Of a stretch of 64,000 bases of DNA, positions 1 through 3,210 are shown in pieces. The translations under genes and the position numbers were made by a program. A model generated the notes under the pieces. The model did not search any database. It was not told the DNA's origin and saw nothing but the letters and a program-made list of their open reading frames with translations. Position 1 is the first letter of the stretch, and each line of letters begins with the position of its first letter. The DNA is from Lysobacterales bacterium (lineage in GTDB: Bacteria; Pseudomonadota; Gammaproteobacteria; Xanthomonadales; Ahniellaceae): positions 112,067 to 176,066 of the forward strand of contig JADKHK010000007.1 in assembly GCA_016721845.1 (NCBI GenBank), given 5' to 3'.

Positions 1-141
1 GCGGAAGGGAAGTTCGAAGAATGGAACTTCAAACCTGTGCCAGTGCGCGAGCACTTCGCGGTCACGGCAAAAGTGTTGAAGGAAATCGCCAATCTTCCCA
101 ACGGGGCGAGCGTGCGCCCTCAGCATCGCGGAGTGATCTAA
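1..141 (+). CDS. 3' end of an integron cassette ORF (partial; start lies left of the window), hypothetical protein
   Basis: Frame 1 is open from base 1 (AEGKFEEWNFKPVPVREHFAVTAKVLKEIANLPNGASVRPQHRGVI*). Its TAA stop (139-141) lies inside the attC inverse core ATCTAAC (136-142), a typical cassette ORF/attC arrangement. No homolog recognised. Confidence 0.45.
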   Translation, partial: AEGKFEEWNFKPVPVREHFAVTAKVLKEIANLPNGASVRPQHRGVI

Positions 142-150
142 CTATGTGCT
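136..150 (+). other. attC recombination site, left (R''/L'') half, separated from its right half by an IS
   Basis: ATCTAAC (RYYYAAC inverse core) followed by TATGTGCT. The same start (GTCTAATTATGTGTTCAAGCCGAC) is seen uninterrupted in the attC at 1982. The IS inverted repeat begins at 151. Confidence 0.6.
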
Positions 151-1592
151 ATGGACTCCTCCCCTACGTCAACCTGATTGATCCTGTTCTGCTTCATCAC
201 GGGTGGATCGGTGCAAGCGTCTATCCGTCCTCGAAGTGGCGGGATCATCCGCCGGGACATCATGGAATCCGCAGGTGTGGGGCCTATCGTTCAAGCGACC
301 TCGAGGGTCGACATAGTTATCGGCCTTGCCACACCGCGGCCGAGCCGCTGGTGATGAGGTTGATCTGATCGATCCGTTGACGTGCCGCTCTGTGGTGAAA
401 GGGTGTGGTGCGTTGACTGCGGGTATCGATCAGGCGCTGGTCATCACGATCTCCTGATCGAAGCGTTTGCCGTAGTCGGCATCGAAGCTGCGTGCGTGGT
501 GCCACGTCGCCCAGATGATGCGCACCATTTTGTTCGCAAGGCCGACTGCCGCCTTGTTGAAGCCGCGGCGTTCGGCGAGCGCGACCGCCCAGGCGCGCAA
601 ACGATCGAGCGGCTTGCCCGCAGCCTGCGCACGTTTTGCCGCCGCGAGTACCGCACGCGCCCTTGAATCAGCAGCGTGCGGCAATACACGTCGCCGCACT
701 TGCTCATGCGCCCCAGTTGTCGCGTCGATCCGCTCGAATGCTCCTTTGGCGTGAAGCCGAGCCAGCTCGACAGCACGCGACCATTCTTGAAGCGATGAAT
801 GTCGCCGACCGATGCGCGCACTGCCGTTGCCGTGACCCAGCCGATGGTCGGCAACTTCTCCAGATCGGCGATCACGCGATCGTCCTTCGCTGTCGACGCG
901 AGTGCACGATCGGCGTCGACGACGCGTTGTTCGAGTGCGCGAATCTCATCGAGCAGCGATGCGATCAGATCGCGCATGCGCTGATCGAGTGCCTCGTGAC
1001 CAAGCGCCGTGCGCATCGCCTGCTGGCCACGCTCGGCGCCTTCGGGAATCACGATGCCGAATTCGCGCAGCAAGCCGCGCGCGAGATTGATGCGTGCCGT
1101 GCGCGTCTCTTGCCACTGCTGACGCGCACGATGCAGCAACTGGATCACCTGCTGCAGCTCGGTCTTGATCGGCACCGGCTTCAGGTCGATGGCACGCGCC
1201 GCTTCGATCATCGCCAGGCAATCCGCAGCGTCGGTCTTGCTGCGCCGCACATAGGGGCCGCACGTACTGCGCCGGAAGCAGCGTCACCTGATGACCCAGC
1301 GCACTCAGCCAGCGGCCGAAATGATGCGCCGAGCCGCAGGCTTCCATCACCACCCGCACCGGTGCACGGTTCTGCCAGAACGCGATGAACTGCGCACGCG
1401 ACAGCCGATGTGAATCGATTGCCCTGCCGTCCTGATCAACGGCGAGCACCTGGAACACCGACTTCGCGAGGTCGATGGCGATGGTGGCGACAGCGGGATT
1501 ACACTTCATGGCGGACTCCTCCGGCGGTGACTGATGCCTCAACACCTTCAGACTGGCACTTCGATGCCGATGCCGCGCCGGGAGGAGTCCAT
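151..1592 (-). mobile_element. IS110-family insertion sequence of the IS1111-like, attC-targeting type (coordinates are IR to IR; true ends may extend a few bp, to about 149 and 1600)
   Basis: Perfect 13-bp inverted repeats: ATGGACTCCTCCC at 151-163 and its reverse complement GGGAGGAGTCCAT at 1580-1592. They enclose an IS110-type transposase. The flanks reconstitute one attC (ATCTAACTATGTG... / ...TTCAAGCCGAC...GTTAGAC). About 7 nt lie between the right IR and the attC sequence, consistent with the subterminal IRs of IS1111 relatives. Confidence 0.8.
430..1509 (-). pseudogene. IS110-family (DEDD) transposase, broken by two frameshifts
   Basis: Three consecutive minus-strand frames give an IS110-type transposase. 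N-terminus: MKCNPAVATIAIDLAKSVFQV...LLPAQYVRP. Middle: (Y)VRRSKTDAADCLAMIEAA...HRFKNGRVLSSWLGFTPKEHSSG...MSKCGDVYCRTLLIQG. C-terminus: ARAVLAAAKR...GFNKAAVGLANKMVRIIWATW. The junctions fall at a G4 run (1254-1257, one base too many) and a C3 run (660-662, one base too few). GGAGGA RBS lies upstream of the ATG at 1509. Confidence 0.85.
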
Positions 1593-1646
1593 CCCATCAT
1601 TCAAGCCGACGTCGCTCCGCGACGCGGCTTAACTCAGGCGTTAGAC
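1593..1646 (+). other. attC recombination site, right half (L'/R'), ends cassette 1
   Basis: TTCAAGCCGACGTCGCTCCGCGACGCGGCTTAACTCAGGCGTTAGAC. Imperfect palindrome (AAGCCGACGTCGC / GCGACGCGGCTT) ending in the core GTTAGAC (GTTRRRY, 1640-1646). Close to the aadA/Xanthomonas-type attC consensus as I recall it. Confidence 0.7.
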
Positions 1647-1650
1647 ACCA

Positions 1651-1956
1651 ATGCCAACCGTCTTCGTGTACGGGTTCAGAGGCAAGTACACCGGGTCTCC
1701 GGTGTACGACTATTCGCATCCCGAGCTCAACGCCACGCACAAATGCATGCTCTTCCTGTCGCAAGAAAGCGATCAGAGCCAGATGCACCTAGCCGGAGCC
1801 GAGTGCCTGAAGTACGGCTTCGGCGAGTACGAATTTTCCCGCGCGGGGAGGCTGGACATTGATTCGCTGAACACGGACACCTTTCGCGGCTTTTCGGGGT
1901 ACTACGAAGAGGCCCTGAGCCAGGGTAGTGCGCTGGTCTTTTATCCCAATGCTTGA
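1651..1956 (+). CDS. cassette-borne hypothetical protein (101 aa)
   Basis: ATG 5 nt after the attC core and ORF followed by the next attC. GC visibly lower than the surroundings. No family recognised (MPTVFVYGFRGKYTGSPVYDYSHPELN...). Confidence 0.6.
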   Translation: MPTVFVYGFRGKYTGSPVYDYSHPELNATHKCMLFLSQESDQSQMHLAGAECLKYGFGEYEFSRAGRLDIDSLNTDTFRGFSGYYEEALSQGSALVFYPNA

Positions 1957-1981: not shown

Positions 1982-2071
1982 GTCTAATTATGTGTTCAAG
2001 CCGACCGCCGAGGAAGTTGCTCGCATCATCCAAACACCGTCGCGCGGCGGCGGCATGACACGGCGTTAGAT
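1982..2071 (+). other. attC recombination site (about 90 bp)
   Basis: GTCTAAT (1982-1988) TATGTGTTCAAGCCGACCGCC ... CGCGCGGCGGCGGCATGACACGGCGTTAGAT, with core GTTAGAT at 2065-2071. Inverse core and core are complementary in 5 of 7 positions. GC-rich internal inverted repeats. Confidence 0.65.
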
Positions 2072-2670: not shown

Positions 2671-3210
2671 ATGCAGCTATCTCTGGACCAGGATTTGCAA
2701 TCCGCAATGCGACGCACACACTTGGATGGCGCACCTGGGGTCGCTGCCTCTGGCGCCGTGTGGCTAGTGTCTGCGGTAGTGTGTTTCGGATTGGGCGTGC
2801 CAAAAGCCGTGTGGGCTTTGTTGATCGGTGGAGCGCTCATTTCGCCCCTCAGCAATGTACTCAAGAAGCTGTTGGGTGCCCCCTCGGAAGCGAAGCCGAA
2901 CAACGCACTCAACCATTTGGCGCTGGCCACCACGATTTGGCTGATCGCCTGCTGCTTTATGGCCTTTGGCCTGTATCTGCACGACGAGACATGGTTCTTT
3001 CCGGCCATGATGCTGACGATCGGAAGTCGCTATCTGGTCTTTTCAATACTGTTCGGCCTAACGATCTATTGGGTTCTAGGCGGCCTGCTCATCGGCGCTG
3101 GTGCGTTAGCCTTCTACCTGTCGTCGCCGGCGTTGTACTCGGCGCTCGTCGGCGCAGCAGTCGAGATCGCTTTCGCAGTCATCCTCTTCTCCAGACTCTC
3201 ACGCCATTGA
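2671..3210 (+). CDS. polytopic membrane protein (179 aa), first gene of a two-gene cassette
   Basis: ATG 15 nt after the attC core. About five hydrophobic helices (e.g. AVWLVSAVVCFGLGV, TTIWLIACCFMAFGLYL, LTIYWVLGGLLIGAGALAF). Good third-position GC bias. Confidence 0.7.
   Translation: MQLSLDQDLQSAMRRTHLDGAPGVAASGAVWLVSAVVCFGLGVPKAVWALLIGGALISPLSNVLKKLLGAPSEAKPNNALNHLALATTIWLIACCFMAFGLYLHDETWFFPAMMLTIGSRYLVFSILFGLTIYWVLGGLLIGAGALAFYLSSPALYSALVGAAVEIAFAVILFSRLSRH

Follow-up and report, generated by a model that had tools for sequence, protein, structure and literature searches.

The window analysed here is a 64,000-nucleotide stretch of DNA from a Lysobacterales bacterium (assembly GCA_016721845.1, contig JADKHK010000007.1, positions 112,067 to 176,066 of the forward strand), and it opens within a chromosomal integron. 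The open reading frame (ORF) that ends at position 141 belongs to a gene cassette, and the attC recombination site of this cassette, attC1, is parted between R'' and L'' by a segment that we regard as very probably a copy of an insertion sequence (IS) of the IS1111-attC group, carrying a DEDD transposase and a predicted seekRNA that matches the attC flanks. The features that define this element and the split site, in window coordinates, are these:

136-148, plus strand: left part of attC1, with the R'' core ATCTAAC (136-142) and the spacer TATGTG
149-1599, minus strand: very probable insertion sequence of the IS1111-attC group, 1451 bp, the 148/149 edge being placed to ±1 nt
151-163: sub-terminal inverted repeat (IR) at the transposase-distal (right) end, ATGGACTCCTCCC, 13 nt, 100% complementary to 1580-1592
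164-429: non-coding region 3' of the transposase stop codon, 266 nt
430-1509, minus strand: transposase gene (DEDD/RuvC-like and Transposase_20), stop codon at 430-432 and ATG at 1509; the intact homologue has 359 aa
1580-1592: sub-terminal IR at the transposase-proximal (left) end, GGGAGGAGTCCAT, partner of 151-163
1593-1599: left-end terminal extension, CCCATCA on the plus strand and TGATGGG in transposase sense, 7 nt, between the IR and TTCAAGCC
1600-1646, plus strand: right part of attC1, with L'' (TTCAAGCCGAC...), the central palindrome, L' and the R' core GTTAGAC (1640-1646)

The junctions read ...ATCTAACTATGTG|CT-ATGGACTCCTCCC ... GGGAGGAGTCCAT-CCCATCA|TTCAAGCCGAC...GTTAGAC, and the edges were placed with the help of three full copies of the element, the neighbouring empty attCs and an uninterrupted allele in a second genome (G011). 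An earlier note on this DNA had described perfect 13-bp IRs around an IS110-type transposase, with about 7 nt between one repeat and the attC sequence, and each of these features is borne out. Three minus-strand ORF pieces between the IRs match DEDD_Tnp_IS110 (PF01548) and Transposase_20 (PF02371), and in an intact, 92%-identical copy from a congener (G004) both domains score above cut-off, as does NF033542, 'IS110 family RNA-guided transposase' (298.6 bits, cut-off 140). Elements of the IS1111 family have sub-terminal IRs, asymmetric terminal extensions with 7 bp typical on the left, a non-coding region downstream of the transposase gene, a DEDD transposase, and site- and orientation-specific insertion (PMC11187229). 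We compared the element with this family on IRs of 11-13 bp, perfect or nearly so, and on extensions of 7 (or 6) bp on the left and 3 bp on the right; its long non-coding region indeed lies downstream of the transposase gene, with only about 70 nt upstream of the ATG at 1509.

The nearest named relatives among annotated plasmids, by DNA and protein, are ISPa25, ISKpn4, ISPa62 and ISPa21, all of which target attC, in keeping with the note's assignment to an IS1111-type element with sub-terminal IRs. ISPa25 is the best named match to the transposase (48.6% aa identity), the ISKpn4/ISPst6/ISPa21/ISPa62 group falls at 46-50%, IS1618 and IS5708 at about 40%, and IS5075 and IS4321 at about 30%, while unnamed proteins from metagenomes share 88-90% identity and are the best database matches. 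Six transposase peptide words found no close named relative in the ISfinder set supplied with PMC11187229, in what was a word search rather than an alignment. A maximum-likelihood tree places the lineage as sister to the ISKpn4/ISPa21/ISPa62 clade (support 83/85), with the ISPa25 group adjacent, and splits off IS1618, IS5708, IS5075 and IS4321, which do not target attC, at 100/99; these four are the only outgroups, the backbone is a polytomy, and one row (L105), a spurious ORF on a very long branch, was disregarded.

Removal of 149-1599 rejoins 136-148 with 1600-1646 into a canonical 60-nt attC with the cores ATCTAAC ... GTTAGAC, much as the earlier note had foreseen in proposing that a normal attC would result. 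On the bottom strand, with DNA parameters, the rejoined site folds into a single imperfect hairpin of -18.2 kcal/mol (z = -6.5 against shuffled sequences), stronger than those of the intact neighbouring attCs, and its right part, compared by eye with the qacL attC of a class 1 integron, shows about 85% identity. There is no target-site duplication, the flanks rejoining to ATCTAACTATGTG|TTCAAGCCGAC as in the neighbouring empty attCs. The uninterrupted allele that the note suggested seeking in relatives is present in G011 (G011:C1:1603754-1604330), a genome that belongs to the same family but another genus and carries cassette 1 at 92% identity over 500 nt. Its cassette shares the G|TTAGAT boundary at the start, and ...GGAGTGATCTAACTATGTG continues straight into TTCAAGCCGAC..., giving the same junction in uninterrupted form; this confirms the insertion point and the lack of a target duplication. 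The G011 cassette sits within an array, with an attC before it, and not at attI, and the comparison of the two sequences indicates that cassette 1 has been exchanged across genera, possibly with a swap of attC.

Four other copies lie in the same assembly: two of full length with at least 99% identity (C13:195148-196597 and C13:197756-199208) and two truncated ones, at C13:998077-998610 (right end plus 530 nt) and C8:113568-113771 (right end plus 205 nt). Matches to the element occur in eight of the nine genomes searched in the source genus; G004 holds the intact copy with its 359-aa transposase, and G007 holds four copies at 79% identity, one of them intact. The three full copies and two truncated copies of the source genome, together with those of G004 and G007, all lie 5-7 nt past the TAAC of R'' and directly before [T/A]TCAAGC, in one orientation relative to attC, and the same repeats bound every copy; they represent multiple independent insertions. 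In the window the cassette ORFs run on the plus strand and the transposase is encoded on the minus strand, which makes the element antisense to the array. According to PMC3001079, ISs that target attC insert near its 5' end and antisense to the array, and the position and orientation seen here are identical to those of real ISPa25 and ISKpn4 insertions, a comparison that the note had proposed.

The truncated copies each adjoin an attC R'' half-site (gcctaactatgYgt), with unrelated genes on the other side, and look like relics of lost cassette arrays. Many short matches to the first 50-130 nt of the right end of the IS are scattered through G001, G002, G004, G005 and G008 (for example G002:C7:22024-22108 and G008:C541:1754-1839), and these may be copies cut short at contig ends, decayed copies or a miniature derivative.

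IS1111 elements encode their seekRNA in the non-coding region 3' of the transposase gene (PMC11187229), and this region of the window element holds the following predicted parts:

269-339, minus strand: predicted seekRNA core, with outer stem arms at 329-339 and 269-280, closed by a GCC/GGC stem
311-319: predicted guide 1, RNA UAACUAUGU, in the internal loop on one side of the inner hairpin (296-310)
289-296: predicted guide 2, RNA GCUUGAAC, in the internal loop on the other side of the inner hairpin (296-310)

In transposase sense, and aligned with ISPa25 and ISKpn4, the conserved core reads GCCGATAAC-TATGT-CGACC-CTCGA-GGTCG-CTTGAACG (324-288). Guide 1 gives a 9-nt match to cTAACTATGTg on one flank of the insertion point, and guide 2 is the complement of gTTCAAGCc over 8 nt that span the insertion point on the other strand; the top-strand match lies 5' of the bottom-strand match, the order published for IS1111 seekRNAs (PMC11187229). 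A 79-nt segment has a minimum free energy of -34.2 kcal/mol, and its fold puts one guide on each side of an internal loop of 11+11 nt. The 37-nt core pattern occurs in 111 stretches among public genomes (one genome per species), mostly of the Pseudomonas group with some from Lysobacteraceae and Rhodanobacteraceae. Compensatory changes in the inner hairpin (GATC/GATC, GACC/GGTC, GGCC/GGCC) keep its pairing, and at least seven compensatory arm pairs are found in the outer stem; of the 66 unique sequences, 57 form an outer helix of 7 bp or longer, vs 3 of 66 when the 3' arm is shuffled. The outer stem was scored sequence by sequence, RNAalifold on a MAFFT alignment having missed it through an offset of one to two columns between lineages. 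The element would make and use a seekRNA of this predicted form.

In non-coding DNA the window copy differs from that at C13:195148-196597 by substitutions at 273 and 278 only, both in the 3' arm of the predicted outer stem; by reading, they seem to keep pairing (U-A to U-G) and to go towards the arm variant of G004 and G007.

The guide itself differs between lineages in step with its target. When guide position 5 is set against the target (guide/target), the counts are T/T 8, T/other 2, other/T 4 and other/other 43 (Fisher p = 1e-5, a statistic that counts related, non-independent elements and overstates their independence). Elements with a TAACAAT guide adjoin CTAACAAT attCs, and the TAACTAT-guide elements of the source genus adjoin CTAACTAT attCs. 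Whether the lineage has naturally re-tuned its guide, with TAACTAT for TAACAAT, other guide bases varying between species of the genus and the change tracking the attC family of the hosts' chromosomal integrons (CTAACTAT...), is in our judgement evenly balanced. A re-tuned guide would be a minor example from nature of an integron parasite whose guide co-evolves with the integron recombination sites that it targets, and the target TAACTATGTG would be preferred over TAACAATTCG.

Several observations weigh against the reading of 149-1599 as an RNA-guided element of the IS1111-attC group or limit it. The right-end extension of the window copy is 2 nt (CT), given the usual 6-nt spacer TATGTG, where the canonical length is 3 nt; since most sister copies have TCT, either the 148/149 edge is placed only to ±1 nt or this copy has lost a base. 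A -35-like TTGACG in the right end lies, by eye, about 4 nt farther from the circle junction than in ISPa25, and with this longer spacing inspection by eye reveals no clear counterpart of the ISPa25 junction promoter. An Rfam scan of 1-2200 at E <= 1 matched no family, curated seekRNA and bridge-RNA families included. To these can be added the relatedness of the elements behind the guide-target count, the attC body, which is of the long 90-nt type in G011 and of the short 60-nt type right of the IS here, and the lack of any intact copy in the source genome as assembled, even though its three full copies are at least 99% identical.

The difference in attC body means that the two flanks are not necessarily halves of one original attC. 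They could instead be a chimera, produced by homologous recombination between IS copies in different attCs, in which case the site rejoined across 149-1599 would differ from the original one. Beyond the G011 cassette with its long body, this explanation draws on the copies on another contig, which are at least 99% identical over 1.45 kb and are flanked by both attC types; the fold of the rejoined site does not discriminate here because L'', L' and R' all lie right of the insertion point. Yet attC bodies may vary between cassette alleles for other reasons, the R'' core ATCTAAC pairs better with the GTTAGAC found here than with the GTTAGGC of G011, and no reciprocal product was identified among the sequences compared, so we consider a chimeric origin improbable. 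Near-identical copies in different arrays may shuffle cassettes by homologous recombination, which, if true, could explain how one cassette comes to have different attC bodies in two genera. We give practically no credence to a different invader of attC, be it an IS110-type element whose bridge RNA is encoded upstream or a group IIC-attC intron, or to a chance IR around a stray transposase gene. Group IIC-attC introns likewise enter attC close to its 5' end and in antisense orientation (PMC3001079), but Pfam finds only the two IS110-type transposase domains and no reverse transcriptase, and Rfam finds no intron RNA; the downstream non-coding region and the sub-terminal IRs are features of IS1111 and not of IS110, and a chance IR would not recur as the boundary of every copy. 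The group II intron and the chance repeat were rejected on these grounds (Pfam, Rfam and the repeats at every copy), and we retain an IS of the IS1111-attC group as the best account of 149-1599.

The earlier note had called this IS dead because of two frameshifts, and the frameshifts are indeed present in the assembly: compared with the intact G004 copy there is a +1 in the G-run at 1254-1257 and a -1 at about 660, and translation from the ATG at 1509 loses the true frame after about 85 codons. That the element is dead is unproven, because other repeats in the assembly also differ mostly by indels. The two full C13 copies have +GC and -GC at another site, and in one of the two a sub-terminal repeat is longer by one base; no copy in this genome is intact as assembled, yet the three are at least 99% identical, a combination that assembly error fits better than old decay. 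We lean slightly towards the view that the element is alive, the frameshifts in the window and in the two C13 copies being long-read errors in unpolished repeats and all three copies being functional. Between pairs of the three copies indel events are about as frequent as substitutions (5-7 gap-opens vs 4-7 mismatches per pair), the lesions fall in a G-run and in CG repeats, and the near-identity of the copies points to recent transposition. Self-comparison of the assembly gives the same picture, with 0 mismatches and 8 gap-opens in a 1.38-kb repeat, 9 mismatches and 6 gap-opens in a 5.4-kb repeat, and 123 mismatches and 122 gap-opens over 13 kb of haplotig-like small contigs. Against a living element, long unique ORFs of up to 1201 aa run uninterrupted in the window, which shows that errors are not everywhere; perfect targets (CTAACTATGTGTTCAAGCCGAC) stand empty in an attC cluster at C13:902-910 kb, as would fit an inactive element; and the two clearly truncated copies show that decay does occur in this genome. 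Intact unique ORFs beside indel-rich repeats are nonetheless the pattern expected of a long-read assembly whose repeats were left unpolished, and we find it rather doubtful that the frameshifts in the window are real. ORF continuity is a crude test of assembly quality, since high GC content gives many spurious ORFs, and self-BLAST of repeats is the more informative one.

The small contigs C1, C2, C4, C6, C9, C10 and C12 are 94-98.6% identical duplicates of parts of C13, C3 and C8, with about as many gap-opens as mismatches, which suggests strain-variant haplotigs with residual long-read indel errors.

The integron around the split site extends to both sides of the window start, and its features are as follows (C7 coordinates where a feature begins before the window):

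C7:110527-111555, minus strand: intI integrase, an open frame of 342 aa, TIGR02249 at 480 bits (cut-off 265), about 500 bp before the window start
C7:111714: attI-type GTTAGAT, between intI and cassette 1
1-141, plus strand: 3' end of the cassette 1 ORF, 137 aa, whole ORF at C7:111794-112207, its stop codon TAA (139-141) within the R'' core
1651-1956, plus strand: cassette 2 ORF, 101 aa, no family match
1982-2071, plus strand: attC2, intact, 90 nt, the empty-site comparator GTCTAATTATGTG|TTCAAGCCGAC
2558-2656: attC3, with further cassettes beyond it

An intact intI followed by an attI shortly before the window start makes the ORF ending at 141 the first cassette and the split site its attC. 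The cassette 1 protein has a weak match to T6SS_Tdi1_C (T6SS immunity protein Tdi1) at 24.7 bits, below the cut-off of 27.4, and the cassette ORFs at 2104-2643 and 2671-3210 match DUF5063 and DUF7010, both families of unknown function, as one commonly sees among the cassettes of chromosomal integrons.

If it moves as ISKpn4 and ISPst6 do, the element would excise as a circle, for which the abutted ends predict the junction ...GAGTCCATAG(A)|TGATGGGATGG, and a complex of RNA and transposase would insert it without target duplication. In the window it would have landed between the R''-spacer and L'' (TAACTATGTG|TTCAAGCC) of the attC of the attI-adjacent cassette, antisense to cassette transcription. 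With R'' parted from L''-L'-R' by 1.45 kb, the single-stranded hairpin recognised by IntI should fail to form, and the split attC is probably disabled, in which case cassette 1 would no longer be excised alone. Cassette 1, the IS and cassette 2 would then act as one unit bounded by attI and attC2, and an antisense insert of 1.45 kb after cassette 1 could reduce the transcription of downstream cassettes from Pc. Since integration at attI needed a working attC, the IS most likely arrived after cassette 1, so that the order of events would be integration of the cassette at attI followed by insertion of the IS. Experimental evidence on the effects of such insertions on cassettes is limited (PMC11616780).

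Two other groups of attCs lie on C13. A second integron-like array (C13:194600-199260) has four attCs, two of them holding full IS copies; its attI region and the first few intI codons are about 73% identical to the integron on C7, the rest of the integrase gene is gone, and a DUF4344 metallopeptidase gene lies upstream. Contig C2 was considered as an IS-free allele of this array and rejected, as it is a divergent haplotype with unrelated genes there: C2 is an alternative haplotype of C13:189-207 kb in which HNH-like and antitoxin-like genes replace the second array. A third cluster (C13:901800-910400, minus strand) has at least ten attCs with no integrase nearby, among them several perfect targets CTAACTATGTGTTCAAGCCGAC, none of which is occupied by the IS. 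Fractions of occupied attCs are approximate, the first attC pattern having given five sites and missed this cluster.

IS1111-attC elements are the best-known integron parasites, and their RNA-guided nature has been known since 2024. What the window contributes is a lineage as yet unnamed, found in an environmental Rhodanobacteraceae-like genus, and a natural pair of occupied and empty sites for comparison; the existing understanding of the class is unchanged. A one-base guide change that mirrors the local attC family would offer a ready natural test case for the programmability of seekRNAs, and since the IS lies in the attI-adjacent attC beside an intact integrase, the locus is convenient for asking how far such insertions freeze arrays or alter downstream expression. 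It also carries a caution, in that the 'dead' state of such a copy may be an assembly artefact.

Known systems can be set beside the window element at increasing closeness. Group IIC-attC introns resemble it in that they too target the 5' part of attC and lie antisense to cassette transcription (PMC3001079), and differ in being retroelements with a reverse transcriptase and a ribozyme. IS5075 and IS4321, at about 30% aa identity, have the IS1111 family-level features in common with it; they fall among the tree outgroups and have a target other than attC. The IS1111-attC group itself is reportedly that of Tetu and Holmes (2008) and of Post and Hall (2009). Within the group, ISKpn4, ISPst6, ISPa21 and ISPa62 agree with the window element in architecture, target position and orientation, have the seekRNA core in their non-coding regions, and order the guide segments as published. 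They differ in the repeat (ATGGACTCTCCCC), in the left extension (GGCTGTA) and in guide 1, TAACAAT(C/G)A, which fits class 1 and Pseudomonas attCs (CTAACAAT). The seekRNAs of ISKpn4 and ISPst6 have been shown experimentally (Siddiquee et al. 2024, PMC11187229), as has their transposition, whereas the seekRNA of the window element is a prediction.

The closest likeness is to ISPa25, whose sub-terminal repeat is identical over 12 nt (ATGGACTCCTCC). In real insertions, ISPa25 (in the blaOXA-17 attC of the P. aeruginosa plasmid NZ_CP137509.1) and ISKpn4 (in a qacL attC) have a near-identical sub-terminal repeat ATGGACTCC... and a 7-nt transposase-proximal extension, which in ISPa25 is TGATGGA vs TGATGGG here. 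ISPa25 also inserts antisense, 6 nt past the TAAC of R'' and before an L'' of [T/C]TCAAG, and its downstream non-coding region holds the 37-nt seekRNA core and fold. The two differ in guide 1 (TAACAATGC in ISPa25 vs TAACTATGT here) and in the inner hairpin (CGGCC/GGCCG vs CGACC/GGTCG), and ISPa25 resides in a clinical class 1 integron whereas the window element resides in a chromosomal integron of an environmental Rhodanobacteraceae-like genome. Because the transposases share less than 50% aa identity, the window element is a different IS from ISPa25 by any naming rule; its lineage is new and unnamed, and the kind of element to which it belongs is well described.

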